Shown here: positions 7,682 through 43,249 of the stretch, one piece after another
How the letters are laid out: each line of letters starts with the position of its first letter
Position numbering within the stretch: position 1 is the stretch's first letter
Source of the DNA: Clostridia bacterium
GTDB taxonomy: Bacteria > Bacillota > Clostridia > UBA1381 > UBA9506
DNA length: 64,000 bases
Direction of reading: 5' to 3'
Assembly: GCA_045590535.1 (NCBI GenBank)
Contig: JAZNRE010000005.1
Coordinates: 8,485-72,484 of the forward strand
Notes under the pieces: generated by a model
Databases searched by the model: none
Seen by the model: the letters and a program-made list of their open reading frames with translations, nothing else
What the model was told of the DNA's origin: nothing
Translations under genes and position numbers: made by a program

Positions 7682-8368
7682 TCATATCCGTTCTTCTTTA
7701 GCCACAACCTTGTCAGTGGCTTTCACAATGGAATTGGCAGGATAAACACCCCGCAGGGAAACGAGTGGATACACCGCTGTGTTTTTACCGATAACCGTAC
7801 CCGGATTTAAAACACAACCACATCCCACATCACCGCCGTCACCAATGATGCCGCCGATTTTACGAAGTCCCGTTTCTATCGGCACTTCCCCATGAATCAC
7901 CACTGGTTTTTTATCCGCCTTTAAATTGGAACAAACCGCACCGGCGCCCATGTGAGCACCCGTGCCCAAAACAGAGTCCCCTACATAGTTATAATGGGGC
8001 ACCTGGACACCTTTAGACAACACACAGTTTTTCAGCTCGGTTGCATTGCCGATGACACAATTGGGCCCTGTTATAACAGCACCGCGGATATAAGCCCCCG
8101 GGCGTACCTCGGTTCCCGGTCCCAAAATGGTGGGGCCTTCAATCACAGCCAAAGGGTGCACTGTTACATTTTCCCCTACCAGCACATTGTCTTTTAGCTT
8201 TGCAAATCCGGGCATGCCCTTTTGAATTAAGTCCTTAATGTAGTCCTTAATTTTAGGTAACATTTCCCATGGGTATTCACTTCCTGCAAACAAGGGGGCT
8301 AAATAATCGGTTTTGCAATCAAACAGCGTGGTTGTTTTTAAAGAATCAGTCAACGGTATGACCTCCAT
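7682..8368 (-). CDS. Stand-alone left-handed beta-helix acetyltransferase, GlmU C-terminal-domain-like
   Basis: Hexapeptide repeats run throughout. VRPGAYIRG...ELKNCVL...PHYNYVGDSVLG...GAGAVCSN parallels the GlmU acetyltransferase core (HLxYxGD). The gene overlaps the glmM-fusion stop codon. An alternative TTG start at 8353 has a better RBS. Confidence 0.7.
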   Translation of the reverse strand: MEVIPLTDSLKTTTLFDCKTDYLAPLFAGSEYPWEMLPKIKDYIKDLIQKGMPGFAKLKDNVLVGENVTVHPLAVIEGPTILGPGTEVRPGAYIRGAVITGPNCVIGNATELKNCVLSKGVQVPHYNYVGDSVLGTGAHMGAGAVCSNLKADKKPVVIHGEVPIETGLRKIGGIIGDGGDVGCGCVLNPGTVIGKNTAVYPLVSLRGVYPANSIVKATDKVVAKEERI

Positions 8369-9974
8369 TTTTTATAGCATTTACAATTTCTTCAGCATAG
8401 GCTCGGCACTGCTCTTCATTGTCACTTTCAATCATCACGCGGATAACTGGTTCGGTGCCGCTGGGACGCAAAAGCGCTCTGCCGCAACCGTTAATCTGTC
8501 TTTCTACTTTAGCCAGCGCCTCTAAAACGGCAGCATCGGCCAAAACGGCTTCTTTATCTTTCACCCGTACATTTTGCATGTATTGGGGATATAGGGTGAT
8601 GTCCTGCTTAAGCTTTGAAAGAGAAAGCTTAGAATCGCAAATTTCTTCCATGAGCATAATGGCCGTCAAAATGCCATCACCTGTTGTGGCATATTTTTTC
8701 AAAATAACATGACCGGATTGTTCTCCGCCCAAAGCATAATCATTTTCCTGCATACATTCATAAACAAATCGGTCGCCCACCGCCGTTTGCTCACAGAAAA
8801 TTCCCAAAGCCGCAAGGCTTGACAAAAGGCCGCTGTTGGTCATGACCGTGCCCACCACCTTGTTATGATTCAGCATGCCACGGCTTTTTAGTCTTTTGCC
8901 TAAAATGTAGAGCATCATGTCTCCATCCACGATGTTGCCGTTTTCATCAACAGCAATGCAACGGTCAGCGTCGCCGTCAAAGGCAAAGCCAACATCCAGA
9001 TGCTGCTCTTTCACTAATCGGCAAAGATTTTCTATGTGTGTTGAGCCACAACCTTTGTTGATGTTTAAGCCGTTTGGTTCAGCCCCAATCACCACCGTTT
9101 GTGCCCCCAGGGCATCAAACACCGATTTTGCAATCATCCAGGCGGCGCCGTTGGCACAATCAAGGCCCACCCGCATCGTTTTGTAAGAATGTGAAGCCAA
9201 CGAAATGAGATAACCCACATAGCGATTTCGACCGGAAACATAATCCACAATACAGCCGATTTTTTCCCGGTTTGCAAGAGGCAGGTCGCCACTGTCAAAG
9301 CCCAGGGCTTTCATATTGCCGTCTAAATAAGCTTCAACATAGGCCGTTGTGTCATCATCCAGTTTTTCGCCATAGCGGTTAATGATTTTAATGCCGTTGT
9401 CATAATAAGAATTGTGCGAAGCGGTTATCATAATACCACAATCAAACTCTTCCTGCCGGGTCACATAGGAAACACTGGGGGTTGTGGTTACATGTAGCAT
9501 ATAAGCATCGGCACCCGAGGCGGTAATCCCTGCTACTATGGAATATTCCAGCATATAGCTTGAGCGTCTTGTGTCTTTACCAATCACAATGCGAGGGCGA
9601 TAGCCCACCTTGGTGCAACCAGCCAGCGATGAGCCATAATACCAGCCCAAAAACCGCCCAACCTGATAGGCCTGATAAGAGGTCAGGCTCACATTTGCCT
9701 CACCGCGAAAGCCATCTGTACCAAAATATTTATTGGATGTCTCATTTGCTTTTTGTTCTTTTTGCAGGGATATCTCGTCGTGCAAAAGCTCATCCGTTGT
9801 CACATCAAATAAACTGCAAAGCTGCAGCACCTTATCAATTTGCGGCATAGCCTGATTCATTTCCCACTTTGAAACTGATTGTCTTGAAACTGACACCTTT
9901 TCTGCCAGCTGCTCTTGGGAAAGCCCCGCCAAAGTGCGCAGCTTTAAAATCTTTTCCCCGATTGTCATAACCAA
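8346..9974 (-). CDS. glmM: XRE-family HTH domain fused to phosphoglucosamine mutase
   Basis: The first ~65 aa, IGEKILKLRTLAGLSQEQLAEKVSVSRQSVSKWEMNQAMPQIDKVLQLCSLFDVTTDELL, form a Cro/C1-type HTH. The rest is GlmM-like: active-site TASHNSYYDNGIK, DGDADRCIAVD and GGEQSGH. Confidence 0.8.
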   Translation of the reverse strand: MVMTIGEKILKLRTLAGLSQEQLAEKVSVSRQSVSKWEMNQAMPQIDKVLQLCSLFDVTTDELLHDEISLQKEQKANETSNKYFGTDGFRGEANVSLTSYQAYQVGRFLGWYYGSSLAGCTKVGYRPRIVIGKDTRRSSYMLEYSIVAGITASGADAYMLHVTTTPSVSYVTRQEEFDCGIMITASHNSYYDNGIKIINRYGEKLDDDTTAYVEAYLDGNMKALGFDSGDLPLANREKIGCIVDYVSGRNRYVGYLISLASHSYKTMRVGLDCANGAAWMIAKSVFDALGAQTVVIGAEPNGLNINKGCGSTHIENLCRLVKEQHLDVGFAFDGDADRCIAVDENGNIVDGDMMLYILGKRLKSRGMLNHNKVVGTVMTNSGLLSSLAALGIFCEQTAVGDRFVYECMQENDYALGGEQSGHVILKKYATTGDGILTAIMLMEEICDSKLSLSKLKQDITLYPQYMQNVRVKDKEAVLADAAVLEALAKVERQINGCGRALLRPSGTEPVIRVMIESDNEEQCRAYAEEIVNAIKNGGHTVD

Positions 9975-10295: not shown

Positions 10296-11285
10296 TTAAA
10301 TACCTTCTTCAATTAACGCCTTGGTTAAAGCAACCACCTGCTCTAAATCCTTACGGCACAGCATTTCGCCCGGGGTGTGCACATAGCGCAGGGGAATGGA
10401 AATGCAGCCCGAGGGAACGCCGCCCCCTGTTAAATGAATGGCACCTGCATCGGTGCCGCCTCTTTCAAGTACCTCCGCCTGCCATAAAATGTTATGCTCT
10501 TTGCACAGGTTTTGCAGGCGTTCTTTAATGATGGGATGTGCCAGCATGGAGCTGTCCATAATTTTAATAGCCGCACCACCACCTAAACGAACCGACATTT
10601 TCGGTCCGCAGGCTGCATCACCGGTTCTTGTAACATCCAGCGCCACGGCATAATCCGGCTTTACGGTTTCAGCAACGGCTTTGGCACCCCGCAAGCCCAA
10701 CTCTTCACTAACGGTGAAAACGGCATAAATATCCTGCTTATTTGTCTCGGCTTCCCGAAGCGCCTGAATCAACGCATAGCAACCGGCGCGGTTATCCAGT
10801 GCCTTTGAAATCACGGTGTCACCCTGTTCGCAATAGGCGCCAACAAAAGCAGCCCCTTCGCCCAAGGCCACACGGGCTGACGCTTCTTCTGCATCTTTAG
10901 CGCCAATATCTACATAGAGCCTAGACAGCTTTAAATCCTTAAGCAACTCTGCTTCCTGGCCGTCCGGCACCAGCACACCCTCAGCACCGTTTTCAAACCG
11001 AACACGCTGATAAAGAGCCGTGTGAGGAAAAACACCGCCCAAAGCCGAAACATAAATCTGCCCCTTTTCGCCATAACAGGTGGCAACCAGACCGATCTCA
11101 TCCATATGGGCACAGAGCATCAGCTTTGTGCCGTCACCCTTTTTATGCACAATTAAGTTGCCTAAGGCGTCTTGCCACACCTCGTCGGCACAGGACTCAA
11201 TTTCCTTTTTTATCAAGGATGCTAAATTCCCTTCACAGCCGGAAGGGGCATTGGCATCACAAAGTGTTTTGAGCAAAGTCAACAT
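10296..11285 (-). CDS. M42 family metallopeptidase (TET/FrvX/YsdC-like aminopeptidase), paralog 3
   Basis: CAHMDEIGL, ALDNRAG, VSEELGLRGA and RYVHTP motifs. Confidence 0.85.
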   Translation of the reverse strand: MLTLLKTLCDANAPSGCEGNLASLIKKEIESCADEVWQDALGNLIVHKKGDGTKLMLCAHMDEIGLVATCYGEKGQIYVSALGGVFPHTALYQRVRFENGAEGVLVPDGQEAELLKDLKLSRLYVDIGAKDAEEASARVALGEGAAFVGAYCEQGDTVISKALDNRAGCYALIQALREAETNKQDIYAVFTVSEELGLRGAKAVAETVKPDYAVALDVTRTGDAACGPKMSVRLGGGAAIKIMDSSMLAHPIIKERLQNLCKEHNILWQAEVLERGGTDAGAIHLTGGGVPSGCISIPLRYVHTPGEMLCRKDLEQVVALTKALIEEGI

Positions 11286-12294
11286 GTTGAACCTCCTGAA
11301 TCCATAATCGGGTTAAATCTTTCGCCGCCTGATAATCTTTAAGAGAAATGACATTCACCGGCGAATGTATATACCGTGCCGGCACGGAAATCGCCGCTGT
11401 TACAATACCGCCGGCTGAAACATGAATAATGCCGGCATCATTGCCGCCGGTGGCTGTTTGTTTAAACTGCACAGGGATGCCGTTCTTTTCACCCATCTGA
11501 TATAACTTTTGCGCCACTTTTCGATTATAGCTGGTGGCGCCATCTATCAAGGAAATAGCTGCACCCTTACCTAAACGGGTGGATACGGCTCTTTCTTCTG
11601 TTTCTGGCAAATCTGAACAGGTTGTTCCCTCTATCACCAACGCCATGTCGGGCTTTACACGCCGTGCACACAGCCGCGCACCACGAAGACCCACCTCTTC
11701 CTGCACCGTAAAGGCAAAGCAAACATCCCACGGGCAAGGCTCCTGCGCTAATTCCAGCAAAATGGCACAACCAAGGCGGTCATCCAAGGCCTTGGCCTTG
11801 ATTAAACCATCGCCAAAAGGCACAAAAGCACTATCGAATGTGATATAGTCTCCGACAGATACCTTGCTTTCTGCATCGGCTTTGTCCTTTGCACCAATGT
11901 CTACATAAAGTTCTTTTACCTTGGGTGCTTTTTTGCGTTCATCAGGGGTGAGCAGGTGAATGGCCTTTCGGCCAATCACGCCGGAAAGACCCGCAGAGCC
12001 TACCAACACCCGCTTGGATATTAACACCCGGGGGTCAATACCCCCTACGGTTTTAAACTTTAAAAATCCCTCTTCGGTAATGCGGCTGACAATGAGACCC
12101 ACCTCATCCATGTGGGCACAAAGCATAAGAGTTTTGCCACAATTTTCTGTGCCTTTTCGAAAGGCCATGAGATTGCCCATTGAATCAATTTCAATCCGGT
12201 CACAAAAGGGAGTTATTTTTTCTTTAATATAAGAGCGCACGGCGTTTTCGTTACCCGATACGCCGGCAAGATTGGTTAATTCTGAAAGGTACAT
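11257..12294 (-). CDS. M42 family metallopeptidase, paralog 2
   Basis: CAHMDEVGL, ALDDRLG, VQEEVGLRGA and RYIHSP. It overlaps paralog 3 by 29 nt. Confidence 0.85.
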   Translation of the reverse strand: MYLSELTNLAGVSGNENAVRSYIKEKITPFCDRIEIDSMGNLMAFRKGTENCGKTLMLCAHMDEVGLIVSRITEEGFLKFKTVGGIDPRVLISKRVLVGSAGLSGVIGRKAIHLLTPDERKKAPKVKELYVDIGAKDKADAESKVSVGDYITFDSAFVPFGDGLIKAKALDDRLGCAILLELAQEPCPWDVCFAFTVQEEVGLRGARLCARRVKPDMALVIEGTTCSDLPETEERAVSTRLGKGAAISLIDGATSYNRKVAQKLYQMGEKNGIPVQFKQTATGGNDAGIIHVSAGGIVTAAISVPARYIHSPVNVISLKDYQAAKDLTRLWIQEVQHVDFAQNTL

Positions 12295-13319
12295 GCAAGC
12301 ACCTCCAAATCCAAATTTTGCAAAAGGGCTGCCAGCAAATCACCCACCGCCTGCACATCATCAAAATGCAGGGTTTCCACCGTGGTGTGCATATACCTTA
12401 AGGGAATGGATAAAAGCAACACAGGAATGCCCCCATTGGCAACCTGAACAGCCCAGGCATCGGTGCCTGTGTCACCGCCGTCAGCATCGAAGCTAGCGGC
12501 AATATCTTCTTTTTCAGCCACCTCTTTGGCTAGCGACGATAAATAAGGATGAATGTTGGGGCCAAAGCTGACAACGGCACCGCTACCCAGCTTAAAGATG
12601 CTTTCTGAACCCCCATCCGGCGTATCACCGTGGCAAACATCCACCACAAAGGCACAATCGGGCGCCAGTCTTTCGCTAACCATGGCAGCGCCACGCAAAC
12701 CAACCTCTTCTTGCACAGCCGCCACCACATAAATTGTGAACGGCAAGTCCTTGCCCTTTAAAGCCTCTAAACACAAAATTAGTGAAATGAGTCCGGCCCG
12801 GTCATCAAAGCTTTTGCCCGACAAAATATCATTATAAAGCTCGGCCGGTTCTTCGGCAAAGCAGACCATATCGCCCACCGAAACCTTCTGCCGAACCATT
12901 TCGCCGGAAAGACCCAAATCAATAAACATGTCTTTAATTTCTGTGGCTTTATCCTGTCCGCCGCTTTGCAAATGAGGAGGCTTGGCACCAATAACGCCAT
13001 ACAAAATCTCTTTGCCCCAAACCCGCACCTCGGCACCGGGCAAAATGGCACAATCCACACCGCCCACGGGCACAAAGGATAAAAATCCGTCTTCGCTGAT
13101 GCCGGATACCATAAGGCCAATGCCGTCTATGTGCGCTTCCAGCATAACGGATTTTGCATCGGGGTTTTTGGCCGGAATCACGCCCACCACATTCCCCATG
13201 GGGTCTCTTTCCACAGAGGCACAATAAGGCGCAAGCAAATTGCTCACCGCCTCTGTAAGCGAAAATTCAAAGCCGGATATGCCGTCTTTGGCTGCTAACT
13301 GTAACAATGCGTTTTTCAT
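12276..13319 (-). CDS. M42 family metallopeptidase, paralog 1
   Basis: EAHIDGIGL, FDDRAG, VQEEVGLRGA and RYMHT. It overlaps paralog 2 by 19 nt and the murD stop by 4 nt. Confidence 0.85.
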   Translation of the reverse strand: MKNALLQLAAKDGISGFEFSLTEAVSNLLAPYCASVERDPMGNVVGVIPAKNPDAKSVMLEAHIDGIGLMVSGISEDGFLSFVPVGGVDCAILPGAEVRVWGKEILYGVIGAKPPHLQSGGQDKATEIKDMFIDLGLSGEMVRQKVSVGDMVCFAEEPAELYNDILSGKSFDDRAGLISLILCLEALKGKDLPFTIYVVAAVQEEVGLRGAAMVSERLAPDCAFVVDVCHGDTPDGGSESIFKLGSGAVVSFGPNIHPYLSSLAKEVAEKEDIAASFDADGGDTGTDAWAVQVANGGIPVLLLSIPLRYMHTTVETLHFDDVQAVGDLLAALLQNLDLEVLACTFQN

Positions 13320-37886: not shown

Positions 37887-38016
37887 GCGTTCTCGCTTAG
37901 AATGCATTTTCATTATATAAAGACTGTATAATCTGGATGCCAAACCTTTTTAACGATTGCGAAATGTAAGGTTTAGATGTAGTTTGTTTTTCTGAACTTC
38001 GTACCATCCGAAGGCC

Positions 38017-38131
38017 CCCTTGCCTAAAGGGGGCTGTCTGCGAAGCAGACTGGGGGATTCATTTTTAATTTGTTAAACCCCACTTATATCCCTCCACCAC
38101 CTTCGGTGGTCCCCCTCCCTTTAGGCAAGGG
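38017..38131. repeat. GC-rich hairpin element bounded by a perfect 15-bp inverted repeat
   Basis: CCCTTGCCTAAAGGG (38017-38031) and its exact reverse complement CCCTTTAGGCAAGGG (38117-38131). Internal hairpins are GTCTGC-GAA-GCAGAC, ACCACC-TTC-GGTGGT and CCTCCCTT-TAGGC-AAGGGAGG. Confidence 0.5.
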
Positions 38132-38227
38132 AGGCTTTTATTAAACTCATTATACCATATTTTAACCCAATATACAAGGCATTTCGAACCAACCATAATA
38201 TAATTGCACATCGTGGGTAAAATAATA

Positions 38228-38256
38228 TTGACAATAAAAATCTTTTTTGCTATAAT
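38228..38256 (+). promoter_or_regulatory. Consensus sigma-A promoter (TTGACA-N17-TATAAT) of the T-box/aspS operon
   Basis: TTGACA ataaaaatcttttttgc TATAAT. Confidence 0.65.
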
Positions 38257-38261
38257 GACTA

Positions 38262-38484
38262 ATGGAGACTCGGCTTTTGTGGAAAGTCTGAAAGGGAGAA
38301 TGCGTCATGGACTGAAAGCGCATTTGAGATGAGTAGTAAGTTTGGGAACACTCCGATTTTCATAACAGTTTCATATTTAAAAGCGGATGCCGTTTCGGCA
38401 TCAAAGCGGGTGGCACCGCGGGTTAAATATTTTGTTTACTCGTCCCGGAAATATCGTTTGATATTTCCGGGGCTTTTATTTTTT
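38262..38484 (+). promoter_or_regulatory. T-box riboswitch leader (tRNA-sensing transcription attenuator)
   Basis: Stem I elements are an AG-bulge-like GGGAGA, a distal loop ending UGAAAG, and AGUAGUA. The T-box core AAAGCGGGTGGCACCGCGGG lies at 38403-38423. The terminator CCCGGAAATATC-GTTTG-ATATTTCCGGG plus TTTTATTTTTT lies at 38444-38484. Confidence 0.8.
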
Positions 38485-38512: not shown

Positions 38513-40591
38513 ATGTATAGAACCCTATATTGCAATGACATACGCGATGAGCACATTGGCAAAACCGTTCAGCTCGCCGGCTGGGTGGATGTTGTGCGTG
38601 ACCATGGCGGTGTTATTTTTATTGACCTTCGTGATTACACCGGCGTAACACAGGTAGTCATTCATAATGAAGAACTTGTGAAGGATGTAAACCGTGAAAC
38701 CGTCATCTCTGTCAGCGGTATTGTCAGCAAGCGTGACCCCGAAACCGTGAATGACAAAATTGAAACCGGCGCCGTGGAGCTGGTGGCTGACAGCCTTGAC
38801 ATTTTAGGCAAAAGCTTAAACAAGCTTCCTTTTGATGTCCGTGCTTCCCGCTCAAGCAAAGATGAGTTGCGCCTTAAATATCGCTATTTAGATTTGCGCA
38901 ATCCCAAAAACCACGATAATTTGGTAAAACGCTCACAGATTATCCGCCATTTGAGAAACAAGATGGAAGAAAAAGGCTTTTTGGATATGCAAACGCCTAT
39001 CTTAACAGCCTCTTCTCCGGAAGGTGCCAGAGACTTTTTGGTGCCCAGCCGTAAGCATCCCGGCAAGTTTTATGCACTGCCCCAGGCACCCCAGCAGTTT
39101 AAACAGCTTTTAATGGTGTCCGGCTTTGACCGTTATTTTCAGGTAGCGCCTTGCTTCCGTGATGAAGACGCCCGCGCTGACCGTTCACCCGGTGAGTTCT
39201 ATCAGTTAGACTTTGAAATGGCTTTTGCCACGCAAGAAGAAGTTTTGGATGTGTGCGAAGATGTAATCTACGACACCTTCAAAACCTTCTCGGATAAACG
39301 AATTACGCCGAAGCCCTTCCGTCGCATCACCTATGCGGATGCCATGATGACCTACGGCTCGGATAAACCCGATTTAAGAAACCCCTTAATCATCTGCGAT
39401 TTAACCGCCTTCTTTGAAGGGGTTGACTTCCCTGCCTTTAAGGGCAAGCCCGTCCGCGGTATTGTTGCTGGCTGTCAGGGCAAATCCAAGAAGTTCTTTG
39501 AAGATTCATTAAAATATGCCACCTCCCCCGAGGTTGGTCTTGGCGGTCTTGGATATATCACTTTAAAAGACGGCGCCTTTGCAGGCCCCATTGCCAAATT
39601 CTTAAGCGATGCACAAAAAGAAGAAATCACCACCCTGACCGGTGTGAAAGAGGGCGAAACCCTGTTCTTCATTTGCGACGACACCAAGAACGACACCGAG
39701 AAAAAAGCCGGCTTAATCCGTACCTGGCTGGCCAAAAAAGAACAGCTTGATTTAATTGATGAAGATGCTTTTGAATTCTGCTTCGTTGTGGACTTCCCCA
39801 TGTTTGAAAACGATGAGGAAACCGGTGAAACCATCTTCACTCATAACCCCTTCTCCATGCCCCAGGGCGGTATGGAAGCTTTGCTCACCAAAGACCCAAC
39901 CGAAGTGCTTGCATATCAGTATGACCTGGTAGGCAACGGCATTGAGCTTGCCTCCGGTGCTGTTCGTAACCACGATATTGACATTATGAAAAAGGCCTTT
40001 GAAATTGCAGGCTATCCTGAAGAGGAACTGAAAAAGCGGTTTAACGCTTTATACACTGCATTTCAGTATGGTGCTCCACCCCATGCCGGTATGGCGCCGG
40101 GCATTGACCGTATGGTAATGCTCTTAACTGACGAAGAAAAGATTTTAGATGTTATTGCTTTCCCCTTAAACGGCAACGCCCAGGACCTGCTTTTAGGCGC
40201 ACCCAGCTTTGTAACCAATCAGCAGCTTGAGGATGTTCACCTCTTAGGAAGCACCAATGTATTGGCGCAGCGTGCCGCCGGACCGGCCAGCGCAGCCAAA
40301 ACCTCGGCTGGCAAGCGTTCCACCTTCTCCAATGCACAGCAGCTGAATCAGATTGCTTTAACTGAAGAGGAAGAAAAGGTTGTGCAGGATATTTTTGGTG
40401 CCATGAATGAGCAGGAAAAAGCGCTGGACGAAATCAGCACCGAGGGTGTTGAACCCATGGTGCATGTCATGCCCATGACCAATGTTCTGCGTGAAGATGT
40501 CCGCCGTCAGCCTTTCTCCCGTGAGAGTCTCTTAGAGGGTGCTCCGGAACGCAGTGAAGATAGCTGGCAAGTGCCAAGACTTGTAAAGTGA
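38513..40591 (+). CDS. aspS: Aspartyl-tRNA synthetase (bacterial type, with GAD insertion) fused to a C-terminal GatC domain
   Basis: The AspRS core has QSPQ-equivalent LPQAPQQFKQLLM, FRDEDARADR, the GAD insert, and GIDRMVML. After a ~30-aa Ala/Ser/Lys-rich linker, the last ~85 aa (ALTEEEEKVVQDIF...GVEPMVHVMPMTNVLREDV...LLEGAPERSEDSWQVPRLV) match GatC end to end. No separate gatC lies upstream of gatA. Confidence 0.85.
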   Translation: MYRTLYCNDIRDEHIGKTVQLAGWVDVVRDHGGVIFIDLRDYTGVTQVVIHNEELVKDVNRETVISVSGIVSKRDPETVNDKIETGAVELVADSLDILGKSLNKLPFDVRASRSSKDELRLKYRYLDLRNPKNHDNLVKRSQIIRHLRNKMEEKGFLDMQTPILTASSPEGARDFLVPSRKHPGKFYALPQAPQQFKQLLMVSGFDRYFQVAPCFRDEDARADRSPGEFYQLDFEMAFATQEEVLDVCEDVIYDTFKTFSDKRITPKPFRRITYADAMMTYGSDKPDLRNPLIICDLTAFFEGVDFPAFKGKPVRGIVAGCQGKSKKFFEDSLKYATSPEVGLGGLGYITLKDGAFAGPIAKFLSDAQKEEITTLTGVKEGETLFFICDDTKNDTEKKAGLIRTWLAKKEQLDLIDEDAFEFCFVVDFPMFENDEETGETIFTHNPFSMPQGGMEALLTKDPTEVLAYQYDLVGNGIELASGAVRNHDIDIMKKAFEIAGYPEEELKKRFNALYTAFQYGAPPHAGMAPGIDRMVMLLTDEEKILDVIAFPLNGNAQDLLLGAPSFVTNQQLEDVHLLGSTNVLAQRAAGPASAAKTSAGKRSTFSNAQQLNQIALTEEEEKVVQDIFGAMNEQEKALDEISTEGVEPMVHVMPMTNVLREDVRRQPFSRESLLEGAPERSEDSWQVPRLVK

Positions 40592-40601
40592 GGTGCCAAG
40601 A

Positions 40602-41780
40602 ATGAATCATTATAAAACAAAAATCGGTAGCGGCAACATCGCCGTTGACGATACCATTTTAGTAAAAGATATTGAAGCTTGTGCCGGTTCTAAAATGCTC
40701 ACCGGCTTTAAGCCTCTCTTTAGTGCAGAAGCCGTAACCCGCCTGGAAGCCAAGGGCTACAAAATCGCCGGCAAAACCAATGTGGGCGAATTTGGCCTTG
40801 ACCTTTTGGGTGAGTTCTCCTATGGTGCAGAAAGCGAAGGCACATTAAAAGGTGCGGCTGCAGACCTGGTGGCAAGTGGCGAAGTGAAAGCGGCTTTGGC
40901 TGTGGATATGAACGGAACAGCAAGACGCGCGGCTGCCATCTCCGGTATTGACTTTTTAAAACCGACATATGGCACAGTTTCCCGCTATGGCGTCATTTCC
41001 TGTGCCGCTTCCGGTGAACAAATCGGCGTTTATGCTAAAGATGCCTCCGGTGTTCAGGAAATTATGAATGTGATCGCCGGTCACGACGAAAAAGACGGCA
41101 CCAGCTTAAAGAACGAAAGCTATGATTACAGTTTTCAGCCTGTTTCCGGCAAAAAAGTTGCCATTATAAAGGAACTTTTAGAAAAAGCTGATGACGAAAC
41201 CAAAAAACGCGTGAGTGTTTATGCTGATGCACTTCGTGCAAAAGGCGTAACGGTTGAAGAAATTTCCTTTAATCTCTTTGACGCCGCCAATGTTGCCTGG
41301 CAGATTTTAATGACCGCTGAAACCTGCAATAACATCTCCCGTTATGACGGCGTGAAGTTTGGTCATCGTGCTAAGGAATATAAAAACATTGACGAATTGT
41401 ATGTTAATTCCAGAACCGAAGGCTTTAACTTCTTAACCAAGGCGGTTATTCTGTATGGCTCTGATGTGCTTTCGAAAAACCGTTATGAAGCCTGCTATGA
41501 TAAATCCTTAAAGGTCCGCCGTGTGATTGCTGAAAAATTCCAAGAGTTAATGGCAAATTATGATGCGATTTTAACCCCGGCGGCAAGCAAAATCACTTAC
41601 GAAGCCTACGACATTCACGAAGCCTTCAAAAAGGTGTTTGAAGAAAGCGTTTTCACCGCACTGGCTAACTTAATCGGCACATCGGCTTTAGTTTCCGGCG
41701 GTGTGCAGCTTATGGGTAAGCATTTTTCAGAGAGTTTGTTATTAAGCCTTGCAGACGCTGCTAAAAAGGAGGGCAAATAA
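40602..41780 (+). CDS. gatA: GatA-like amidase-family protein, short and with a degenerate amidase signature
   Basis: It is colinear with GatA (ILVKD..., GKTNVGEF, LKPTYGTVSRYG, SRYDGVKFGHR, SRTEGFN). It lacks the canonical N-terminal segment of several tens of residues. It carries TLKGAAAD in place of GGSSGGS and AVDMNGTARR in place of GSDTGGSIRQ. Confidence 0.7.
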   Translation: MNHYKTKIGSGNIAVDDTILVKDIEACAGSKMLTGFKPLFSAEAVTRLEAKGYKIAGKTNVGEFGLDLLGEFSYGAESEGTLKGAAADLVASGEVKAALAVDMNGTARRAAAISGIDFLKPTYGTVSRYGVISCAASGEQIGVYAKDASGVQEIMNVIAGHDEKDGTSLKNESYDYSFQPVSGKKVAIIKELLEKADDETKKRVSVYADALRAKGVTVEEISFNLFDAANVAWQILMTAETCNNISRYDGVKFGHRAKEYKNIDELYVNSRTEGFNFLTKAVILYGSDVLSKNRYEACYDKSLKVRRVIAEKFQELMANYDAILTPAASKITYEAYDIHEAFKKVFEESVFTALANLIGTSALVSGGVQLMGKHFSESLLLSLADAAKKEGK

Positions 41781-41782
41781 TC

Positions 41783-43201
41783 ATGAATTATGAATTGGTC
41801 ATCGGCCTTGAGACCCATGTGGAGCTCAACACCGAATCAAAAATATTCTGTTCCTGCGGTGGTCACTCAGCCGCCAAAGAACCCAATGACTGTGTATGCC
41901 CTGCCTGCAGCGGCATGCCCGGTATGCTCCCTGTGATGAACAAACATGTTGTGGAGCTGGCTGTTACAGCAGGACTCATGTTAAACTGCGACATTAACCG
42001 TTACACCACCTTTGACAAAAAGAATTACTACTACCCTGACCTGCCCTGTGCTTATCAGATTACACAGCTCAACCATCCCATTTGCACCAACGGCTGTGTG
42101 ACCTTAAAAACCTCGGCCGGCACCCGTGACATCCGCATTAAGCAGATCCACATGGAAGAAGATGCAGGCAAATTGGTGCACGGCGGTAAATACTCTTATG
42201 TTGACTTTAACCGCACCAGCGTGCCCTTGATTGAAATTGTTACCCAGCCTGACTTTAGAAGTGCTGAAGAGGTGGTAACCTACTTAAACAAGCTGAAATC
42301 CATGTTCCGTTCCGGCGGTATTTCAGAATGTGAAGAGGGTGCTATGCGCTGCGATGTTAACATCTCCGTTCGTCCTGAAGACAGCGAAGAATTCGGTGTG
42401 CGTACCGAAATTAAAAACATGAGCTCCTTTGAAGCCATTGAAAAGGCCATCCGCTATGAAGCACAGCGCCATATGGACGCTTTGGAATTTGACACCGAAG
42501 AACTGGTGCAGGAAACCCGCCGTTTTGATGATGCCAGCGGCAAAACCTTTGCCATGCGTAACAAAGAAACCGAGGCGGATTACCGCTACTTCCCCGATGC
42601 TAACTTAATGCCCATCATCATTGATGACGAGTGGCTGGAGGAAATTAAGGCGAACAAACCTGCTGCTGTGGATGAAAAGGCTGAAGATTATCGCCTGGCA
42701 GGCATTTCGGATAAAGAAATCGACATGCTCATCTCCAACCACAAAATCAGCAAGCTACTCGATGATATTGTGGCTATGGGTGCTAATGCCAAAGATGGTG
42801 CTGCATGGATTTTAACCGACTGTGCCGGTATTTTGCGCAAAGATGGCAAAACCTTGAATGATTTAGTTATCACCGCTGAAAAGCTCTATGCTGTCATTCA
42901 AATGGTGGATAATGGCGACATCAACCGCAACGCCGGCAAAAAGATACTCATTGCTGTGGTTGAACAAGATGTTGACCCCATTGCTTATTGCAAAGAGCAG
43001 GGGCTTGACAAAAAGTTTGATACTTCTGCCATCAGCGCTGTGGTCGATAAGGCCATTGCCGAAAATCCCCAGTCTGTAGAGGACTTTAAAAATGGTAAGG
43101 TTAAGGCATTGCAAGCTCTCTTTGGTGCTTGTATGAAAGAATTAAAAGGCGCCGGCGACCCCGCCGTTATCAAAACCTTGTTGGAAGAGAAATTGAAGTA
43201 A
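41783..43201 (+). CDS. gatB: Asp-tRNA(Asn)/Glu-tRNA(Gln) amidotransferase subunit B
   Basis: ELVIGLETHVELNTESKIFC, DKKNYYYPDLP, MEEDAGK, DFNRTSVPLIEIV, and a C-terminal YqeY-like tail. Confidence 0.95.
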   Translation: MNYELVIGLETHVELNTESKIFCSCGGHSAAKEPNDCVCPACSGMPGMLPVMNKHVVELAVTAGLMLNCDINRYTTFDKKNYYYPDLPCAYQITQLNHPICTNGCVTLKTSAGTRDIRIKQIHMEEDAGKLVHGGKYSYVDFNRTSVPLIEIVTQPDFRSAEEVVTYLNKLKSMFRSGGISECEEGAMRCDVNISVRPEDSEEFGVRTEIKNMSSFEAIEKAIRYEAQRHMDALEFDTEELVQETRRFDDASGKTFAMRNKETEADYRYFPDANLMPIIIDDEWLEEIKANKPAAVDEKAEDYRLAGISDKEIDMLISNHKISKLLDDIVAMGANAKDGAAWILTDCAGILRKDGKTLNDLVITAEKLYAVIQMVDNGDINRNAGKKILIAVVEQDVDPIAYCKEQGLDKKFDTSAISAVVDKAIAENPQSVEDFKNGKVKALQALFGACMKELKGAGDPAVIKTLLEEKLK

Positions 43202-43216
43202 GAATTAAAGCAAAAG

Positions 43217-43249
43217 AAACCGCAGAAAACAAAATGTTTTCTGCGGTTT
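43217..43249. terminator. Bidirectional intrinsic terminator (gatB / GH172 gene)
   Basis: AAACCGCAGAAAAC-AAAAT-GTTTTCTGCGGTTT followed by TTATT. Confidence 0.75.

Follow-up and report, generated by a model that had tools for sequence, protein, structure and literature searches.

We analyzed a 64,000-nucleotide stretch of DNA from a Clostridia bacterium (assembly GCA_045590535.1, contig JAZNRE010000005.1, positions 8,485 to 72,484 of the forward strand; hereafter the window) and found that its aspartyl-tRNA synthetase (AspRS) gene is fused in frame to gatC, so that the open reading frame (ORF) at 38513–40591 on the plus strand encodes a 692-residue protein in which a bacterial-type AspRS is followed by a variable linker and a complete GatC. 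The fusion gene heads a three-gene operon in the order aspS-gatC, gatA′, gatB, in which the GatA homolog GatA′ lacks the catalytic triad. We consider it rather likely that this operon encodes a covalently pre-assembled Asn-transamidosome, with free ammonia as the probable donor. The parts of the fusion gene are as follows.

38513 to 40258, plus strand: AspRS moiety, bacterial type with GAD insertion, residues 1 to ~582 (NF001750, TIGR00459, Pfam; ratio of nonsynonymous to synonymous substitution rates, dN/dS, 0.039).
40259 to 40300, plus strand: linker rich in Ala, Ser, Gly and Lys, ~14–20 residues (low conservation, dN/dS 0.22, no internal start).
40301 to 40591, plus strand: GatC moiety, residues ~597–692, and stop codon (PF02686, TIGR00135, structure-sequence alignment; dN/dS 0.071).

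Pfam places a tRNA_anti-codon (OB) domain at residues 19–97 of the fusion, the class II core (tRNA-synt_2) at 117–553 with the GAD insertion at 340–392, and a C-terminal GatC domain (PF02686) at 616–686 (E = 1.3e-11; 45 bits against a cut-off of 23). The AspRS models NF001750 (737 bits, cut-off 443) and TIGR00459 (609 bits, cut-off 374) are both exceeded over residues 1–577, and residues 604–691 score 48.1 bits against the NCBIfam gatC model TIGR00135 (cut-off 47.1), covering profile positions 5–92 of 93. Among solved structures, homology to AspRS ends at residue ~578, which is 5–9 residues short of the Thermus and Pseudomonas C-termini, and residues 610–690 align with residues 14–94 of S. aureus GatC; the GatC moiety also aligns with Aquifex GatC. 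Together these boundaries indicate that GatC is essentially full length (residues ~597–692, nucleotides 40301–40588) and that the linker spans merely ~15–20 residues. The original prediction, which had the aspS ORF running past its usual end into a GatC domain that profile searches should recognize, is thus borne out by Pfam, NCBIfam and the solved structures. Its translation of the linker and the end of GatC at 40588 were also correct, but the linker is shorter than the ~30 residues it proposed, and the domain begins at ~40301 rather than at ~40336.

GatC appears to be made in no other form. The TGA stop codon at 40589–40591 is overlapped by GAGGTG, the Shine-Dalgarno sequence of gatA′, whose ATG lies at 40602, leaving no space for the separate gatC that had already been reported missing between aspS and gatA. 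No second gatC, gatA, gatB or aspS was found in the 64-kb window, and in place of a free polypeptide of ~95–100 residues GatC is encoded solely as the C-terminus of the 692-residue ORF. We rejected an internal translation start, since across the relatives compared no conserved in-frame ATG, GTG or TTG and no ribosome-binding site precede the GatC part: a TTG at Leu584 in the window is replaced by CTT in 44 of the 70 relatives, and synonymous sites ahead of the GatC part vary freely. GatC is therefore produced only as part of the fusion. An exact match of the fusion protein occurs on a 193-kb NCBI contig, and NCBI annotates the fusion as 'aspartate--tRNA ligase' only.

Gene fusions in sequence derived from metagenome-assembled genomes are frequently spurious, and a stop codon lost, or a frameshift introduced, in sequencing or assembly could have joined aspS to a separate gatC. 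Two distant relatives on long metagenome contigs are in fact disrupted within aspS, by an in-frame TAG at 7845–7847 (L081) and by a frameshift at ~7945–8000 (L082). Both disruptions, however, lie upstream of the junction and not at it; the simplest reading of each is an assembly error or a strain-level pseudogene. In a scan that took one genome for each GTDB species, for which the best 80 of 209 confirmed loci were examined, the junction and GatC region was matched uninterrupted and in frame in 80 of 80 loci, with no stop codon at the junction. In 79 of them a single tblastn high-scoring segment pair covered residues 1–692 (or the contig's share of the gene) at 85–97% identity; in the one exception, L021, the match was split near residue 143, distant from the junction. 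These loci come from ruminant and human gut genomes of Acutalibacteraceae and further Oscillospirales, under the source names Clostridia, Acutalibacteraceae, Ca. Fimenecus, Oscillospiraceae and Monoglobaceae. The four-domain architecture, at 690–693 residues, is shared by more than 120 protein clusters (90% identity) drawn from independent NCBI, ENA, JGI and Logan assemblies, and within the window's clade the linker, although variable in sequence and poorly conserved, keeps its length to within 1–2 residues. We therefore rejected an artefactual origin, the chance of which we regard as negligible; comparison with orthologous loci had been named beforehand as the check that could expose one.

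The operon is also maintained by selection. Pooled over close pairs, dN/dS is 0.039 for AspRS, 0.22 for the linker, 0.071 for GatC, 0.091 for the GatA homolog and 0.035 for GatB, and purifying selection extends across the junction. Wherever the contigs of relatives reach far enough, the fusion is followed four nucleotides on by a GatA homolog of ~395 residues and then by GatB. The fusion is thus conserved and under purifying selection.

The two genes that follow the fusion gene in the window are listed next.

40602 to 41780, plus strand: gatA′, truncated GatA homolog of 392 residues without catalytic triad, presumed scaffold pseudoenzyme (alignment to Aquifex GatA, E = 5.7e-54; dN/dS 0.091).
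41783 to 43201, plus strand: gatB, full-length kinase/transamidase subunit, apparently intact (NF004012, TIGR00133; dN/dS 0.035).

The gene after the fusion had been described as GatA-like, which is correct for its homology and fold and does not extend to its active site. Relative to Aquifex GatA, GatA′ is missing ~66 N-terminal residues, 9 residues ahead of GGSSGG and a further 10 close to its C-terminal end. GatA normally carries a Ser-cisSer-Lys triad with Ser178 as the nucleophile (PMC2330236). In the window, the catalytic Lys of IAVKDN is replaced by Asp (IAVDDT), the cis-Ser motif GGSSGGSA reads GTLKGAAA, and the nucleophile motif DTGGSIRQPA reads DMNGTARRAA, with Thr in place of Ser. 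Of 79 GatA′ relatives, 78 have Asp at the Lys position; the cis-Ser positions hold Leu and K/E/S within a G-x-L-K/E-G-A sequence that replaces GGSSGG, with Leu at one of them in 75; and the nucleophile position is Ala in 36, Ser in 35, Thr in 7 and Gly in 1, a mixture indicating that this position is unconstrained. Other pocket residues (Asp-Asp, DMNG and Arg-Arg) are invariant or nearly so. GatA′ reaches 263 bits against the gatA equivalog model TIGR00132 (cut-off 481), compared with 631 bits for the canonical GatA of a distant fusion locus (L088). An AlphaFold2 (AF2) model of GatA′ nevertheless retains the GatA fold, with a predicted local distance difference test score (pLDDT) of 72 and a predicted template modeling score (pTM) of 0.80, and the top ten Foldseek matches in the PDB are all GatA chains or models (TM-score 0.74–0.79), the best being GatA chains of GatCAB and transamidosome structures (0.76–0.79). 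Judged by its sequence and predicted structure, GatA′ is a conserved pseudo-glutaminase that is under purifying selection and keeps the GatA fold. With the triad lost and ~66 N-terminal residues gone, the hard-wired complex cannot be a normal glutamine-dependent GatCAB.

NCBI lists the GatA′ of this clade as 'hypothetical protein' and fragments from close relatives as 'amidase family protein'. Three such fragments (P0407–P0409), one on a 4.0-Mb contig, are deposited under [Clostridium] scindens and Blautia sp. and are clustered by the database with an AspRS-GatC fusion; this placement may reflect bin contamination, a clustering artefact or horizontal transfer.

GatB, by comparison, is apparently intact. 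It scores 569 bits against NF004012 (cut-off 338) and 496 bits against TIGR00133 (cut-off 315), contains the cradle domain and the YqeY tail (Pfam GatB_N and GatB_Yqey), aligns at full length with Aquifex GatB (3h0l_B; residues 2–471, E = 1e-120) with the conserved motifs in place, and is the most conserved gene of the operon.

More distant fusion lineages indicate the order in which these features arose. A search with the junction and GatC region among 50%-identity representatives returned mainly free GatC and fragments, evidently because full-length fusions are represented there by ordinary AspRS; its useful leads were the fragments P0134 and P0203, which share 45% and 40% identity, respectively, with the window in this region. 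The P0203 C-terminus in turn matched fragments of at most 420 residues alone, many with both PF00152 and PF02686 and with source names that include Aristaeellaceae and Eubacteriales; one Lachnospiraceae-labeled fragment in this search, with the source name GatC, showed no GatC domain match. Three proteins (P0176, P0149 and P0203) carry the GatC C-terminus on unrelated N-termini, namely a SerRS coiled coil, a phage-like protein and a flavoprotein, respectively, and are probably chimeric assemblies or miscalled genes. Database fragments cluster at 274–289 residues and begin at a conserved internal Met (DFPMFE in the window protein); we rejected the reading that these represent a split AspRS, because in the two loci examined (L081 and L082) they fit gene callers restarting at this Met.

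A metagenome scan with generic AspRS motifs, in which most of the 80 loci were unfused AspRS and served as a negative control, recovered intact full-length fusion ORFs in L086–L090 and L146, each followed by gatA and gatB. In other fusion lineages the AspRS and GatC matches are separated by 55–187 nt (roughly 18–62 residues). The unfused AspRS loci of the scan have no gat genes downstream, with the exception of L144, in which aspS is followed after a 749-nt gap by a separate gatC and then by gatA. This arrangement makes the fusion look like the product of stop-codon loss inside an aspS-gatCAB operon. The sister lineages L084 and L146 have the same short, triad-less GatA′ after their fusion genes. 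Canonical GatA with intact serine motifs is found in the fusion loci L081, L082 and L085–L092, and the catalytic-Lys motif was read in all of these except L085. In L093 (7735–9039), GatA has 435 residues and keeps its N-terminus, but the catalytic Lys is replaced by Thr and the segment from GGSSGG to DTGGSIR is deleted, which suggests a second, independent loss of the glutaminase. Since fusions with canonical GatA exist alongside two degenerate forms, the fusion came first, and the glutaminase seems to have been lost later, at least twice.

Transcription of the operon is predicted to be controlled by the following elements.

38228 to 38256, plus strand: sigma-70 promoter, TTGACA, 17-nt spacer, (TG)TATAAT, matching the consensus at 12 of 12 positions.
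38262 to 38484, plus strand: T-box leader with short Stem I, Stem III, T-box/antiterminator motif at 38406–38422 and intrinsic terminator at 38442–38484 (RF00230, RNAalifold).
38347 to 38349, plus strand: T-box specifier codon AAC (Asn), directly 5′ of the 3′ strand of the base helix and followed by a purine.

The promoter hexamers are conserved in relatives while the spacer varies, and the leader and terminator are conserved along with them. The leader contains the T-box motif GCGGGUGGCACCGCGGG followed by a terminator of 14 pairs and a T-run; its Stem I is shortened and has no kink-turn region, and transcription begins at the base of Stem I. It scores 41.1 bits against RF00230 (E = 1.4e-7), below the gathering threshold of 93, whereas leaders of three relatives exceed that threshold (L093, 139 bits; L090, 117 bits; L089, 105 bits). 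We rejected the Rfam alignment of the window leader, which put Stem I over the promoter and gave no clear specifier, in favor of a comparative fold. RNAalifold applied to 45 relatives yielded a short Stem I with compensatory changes in its base helix: pair 1 is GC in 27, GU in 9 and AU in 8 relatives, pair 2 is GC in 39 and AU in 4, and pair 3 is CG in 21, UG in 12 and UA in 8. The leader thus has the structural hallmarks of a T-box, with a specifier and adjoining purine on the 3′ side of Stem I, a T-box sequence able to form the antiterminator, and a competing terminator. The specifier is AAC in all 44 relatives, and the base that follows is A in 42 and G in 2. Canonical T-boxes at the distant fusion loci L081, L082, L087–L090 and L093 (79–139 bits) likewise have AAC at the specifier position of the model, in the contexts GAAG-AAC-A, GAAA-AAC-A, GAGG-AAC-A and GAAG-AAC-C. 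Across all lineages examined the specifier is AAC and never GAC, CAA or CAG. Its invariance indicates that the operon is switched on by uncharged tRNA(Asn), tying it to Asn-tRNA(Asn) synthesis.

Upstream of this promoter, the AT-rich spacer that separates it from a Cu/Zn superoxide dismutase (SOD) gene contains two GC-rich, hairpin-forming repeats, CCCCCTTGCCTAAAGGGGG and CCTCCCTTTAGGCAAGGGAGG, at 37990–38140. These repeats look like repetitive extragenic palindromic (REP)-type elements, and one of them may be the SOD terminator.

The fused AspRS is probably non-discriminating (ND), that is, able to charge both tRNA(Asp) and tRNA(Asn). This reading draws on the gatB gene of the operon, the Asn specifier of the T-box and the anticodon-binding domain, which among solved structures is closest to the ND-AspRS of Mycobacterium and H. 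pylori. The window motif RDH31GGVIFIDLRD is identical to that of the Mycobacterium and H. pylori ND-AspRS chains, the corresponding sequence of the discriminating E. coli enzyme being RDLGSLIF, and His occupies the position of P. aeruginosa His31 (RDHGG). Bernard et al. (2006) reportedly linked His31 to non-discriminating and Leu to discriminating AspRS, which we take as a lead and not as a rule.

Combining these observations, we propose that the strong sigma-70 promoter drives the operon and that the T-box terminator would be read through solely when uncharged tRNA(Asn) pairs with AAC. The ND bacterial-type AspRS would carry a complete GatC on its short, flexible C-terminal linker. GatC is required for GatA folding and for association of GatA with GatB, and forms a belt that holds both (PMC2330236). 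Because of this belt, joining GatC to AspRS by a peptide bond must hold the amidotransferase on the synthetase: the GatC belt would fold GatA, clamp it onto GatB and leave each subunit of the AspRS dimer permanently bearing its own GatA′-GatB module. As AspRS is a dimer, the expected particle would be 2:2:2, and its assembly would be independent of tRNA. The Asp-tRNA(Asn) formed on AspRS would go to the tethered GatB for amidation before reaching the ribosome, and may be channeled. GatA′ would most likely serve only as a scaffold or tunnel, and GatB would most likely take free ammonia in place of glutamine-derived ammonia, which is the most economical donor once the glutaminase is gone. Ammonia is plentiful in the rumen and hindgut. 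An amidotransferase (AdT) can accept 20 mM NH4Cl in place of glutamine, and a loosened GatA site in the yeast mitochondrial enzyme GatFAB raised that activity (PMC4027206).

A more specific version of this proposal, which we put forward tentatively, is a glutamine-independent indirect pathway in which the AspRS dimer carries two tethered GatA′-GatB modules, GatA′ acts as a scaffold whose pocket is possibly an ammonium entry site, and GatB uses free ammonia. According to this version, the glutaminase would have been lost more than once and, in the loci examined, only where GatC is fused to AspRS, namely in the window's clade with L084 and L146 and independently in L093. This restriction suggests that dedication to one synthetase frees the amidotransferase from its glutaminase.

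A pre-assembled, ammonia-using transamidosome has to be set against several points that weigh against it. The linker, at ~15–20 residues, is short and may not bridge the AspRS C-terminus and the N-terminus of GatC in an arrangement that allows catalysis. An AF2 monomer of the whole fusion, built on a 44-sequence alignment of close relatives alone, reached a mean pLDDT of only 51.6 and a pTM of 0.35, so that it cannot be used to judge how far the linker reaches or how GatC docks. ND specificity is not reliably readable from sequence, and free-ammonia use by a complex containing a triad-less GatA′ is an inference. The invariant Asp in place of Lys and the invariant Arg-Arg indicate, at the level of sequence, a pocket that is remodeled and not decaying, so GatA′ could hold another ligand or have another role. 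Finally, a second, canonical gatCAB, or asnS or asnA/asnB, could exist beyond the window and alter the physiological meaning of the operon; within the 64 kb, no asnS, asnA, asnB or glnS was found.

Three other explanations need to be weighed. The fusion could be neutral, in the 'Rosetta-stone' sense that the neighbors aspS and gatC lost the stop codon between them, with co-expression as the sole consequence, an ordinary dynamic transamidosome and no kinetic benefit from channeling. The unfused aspS, gatC, gatA order in L144, the location of every fusion in an aspS-gat operon, the fast evolution of the linker and the treatment of the protein by NCBI simply as bifunctional all fit this view, which we nonetheless judge unlikely: the fusion persists across lineages whose junction and GatC are only ~40% identical, the GatC part is strongly constrained, and GatC is an integral belt of GatA-GatB, so the tether would be physical whether or not it was selected for channeling. 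More doubtful still is a complex that is no ammonia-using amidotransferase and in which GatA′ has been re-purposed to dock a separate ammonia-producing enzyme, to sense a ligand, or to stabilize a GatB that phosphorylates or sequesters Asp-tRNA(Asn). The remodeling and conservation of the former active site (Asp for Lys in 78 of 79 relatives, DMNG and Arg-Arg invariant, Leu in 75 of 79) fit this view, and AtzE-AtzG is a precedent for a GatA/GatC pair that took on different chemistry (PDB 6c62, which is among the Foldseek matches of GatA′). Against re-purposing, GatB is full length, keeps its catalytic motifs and shows the strongest conservation of the operon's genes, the operon has no additional conserved gene, and an Asn T-box is sensible only if the product relieves tRNA(Asn) starvation.

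We give little credence to the third explanation, that the fused enzyme is an ordinary discriminating AspRS with GatC as a mere passenger and that the amidotransferase acts for Gln-tRNA(Gln) no less than for Asn. In its favor, the protein passes the aspS equivalog models of general scope and no second aspS lies in the 64 kb searched, but a specifier that reads AAC, and never GAC, CAA or CAG, in all lineages examined and an anticodon-domain motif of the ND type both speak against it.

Compared with known systems, the fusion architecture by itself is already catalogued. The curated NCBIfam model NF009460 (PRK12820), 'bifunctional aspartyl-tRNA synthetase/aspartyl/glutamyl-tRNA amidotransferase subunit C', likewise describes a bacterial AspRS followed by GatC in one chain, and residues 5–669 of the window protein align with profile positions 24–697 of 723. 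The window protein nevertheless scores 466 bits against a cut-off of 1379, which places it outside this narrow equivalog, as do the 449–684 bits of seven other fusion lineages, and the model is silent on the partner GatA. A search of the literature available to us found no paper on a natural AspRS-GatC fusion, on the PRK12820 family or on a triad-less GatA. The original remark that no characterized example was known therefore holds as to characterization, but not as to the architecture: the AspRS-GatC fusion alone is a recognized, uncharacterized architecture, while we found no description of such a fusion together with both a conserved pseudo-GatA and an Asn T-box.

Saad et al. (2012, in J Biol Chem) reportedly described a tRNA(Asn) T-box that controls the aspS-gatCAB operon of C. 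acetobutylicum. That system resembles the window in being a Clostridia operon that joins AspRS and amidotransferase genes behind an Asn-specifier T-box, but its gatC is reportedly separate and its GatA a normal glutaminase, whereas in the window gatC is fused and GatA′ has no triad. The Asn-transamidosomes of Thermus thermophilus (3KFU), Pseudomonas aeruginosa (4WJ3) and Mycobacterium tuberculosis contain the same components as the window system (ND-AspRS, GatC, GatA, GatB and tRNA(Asn)) and share its presumed purpose of keeping Asp-tRNA(Asn) from translation. These complexes are non-covalent and dependent on tRNA(Asn) (PMC8406222, PMC2330236), in contrast to the window system, in which a peptide bond would replace that dependence and GatA′ is predicted to be inactive. 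The H. pylori transamidosome requires an extra protein, Hp0100 (PMC8406222).

Covalent attachments of amidotransferase pieces occur elsewhere. Deinococcus radiodurans GlnRS (NF011291), like the window AspRS, bears such a piece at its C-terminus, a YqeY/GatB-tail domain, but there it is a tRNA-binding module for the synthetase itself and does not recruit an amidotransferase (PMC1865053). In yeast mitochondrial GatFAB (4N0H), a GatC-like belt carries an extra domain, and a weakened GatA site favors NH4Cl-dependent transamidation; unlike in the window, the GatF extension scaffolds an active, catalytically competent GatA and no synthetase is involved (PMC4027206). A GatC-GatA fusion polypeptide of Mycobacterium smegmatis is, like the window protein, a covalent GatC fusion, but it is a mistranslating laboratory mutant and not a natural AspRS fusion (PMC7541841).

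AspRS and GatCAB are normally unassociated in the absence of tRNA(Asn), transamidosomes being transient and tRNA-dependent, and destabilizing or loosening the complex raises Asp-for-Asn mistranslation (PMC8406222). A natural, widespread covalent transamidosome would thus provide a ready test system for channeling of Asp-tRNA(Asn) by tethering, and the covalent form should aid in obtaining stable complexes for structural work. A conserved GatA′ without the triad also challenges the textbook view of GatCAB as a glutamine-dependent enzyme, as well as the generalization that glutamine-independent formation of Asn-tRNA(Asn) needs AsnA and AsnRS (PMC2330236). The NCBI names of the fusion and of GatA′ will cause metabolic reconstructions of these abundant Clostridia of the ruminant and human gut to miss gatC and gatA, and such reconstructions may wrongly call the Asn pathway absent.

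The operon probably ends at a hairpin between the convergent gatB and DUF2961 genes.

43217 to 43249, no strand assigned: GC-rich, terminator-like hairpin of 15 pairs, probable operon end.

Its neighbors are the Cu/Zn SOD gene upstream and the DUF2961 gene, an FGGY kinase and a fucose isomerase downstream, and the window is otherwise a typical stretch of Clostridia chromosome (mfd, pth, recD2, miaA, mutL, dxr, cdsA, uppS, frr, pyrH, spoIIGA, sigE and addA). In the distant fusion locus L090, a cobalamin riboswitch (RF00174; 11552–11696; 36.8 bits, above the gathering threshold) lies directly 3′ of gatB. Elsewhere in the window, a gene at 8346–9974 on the minus strand encodes a phosphoglucomutase/phosphomannomutase with four PGM_PMM domains and an N-terminal HTH_3 DNA-binding domain, an unusual fusion of enzyme and regulator, and three tandem M42 glutamyl aminopeptidase paralogs at 10296–13319 on the minus strand adjoin a Mur-ligase-like gene.

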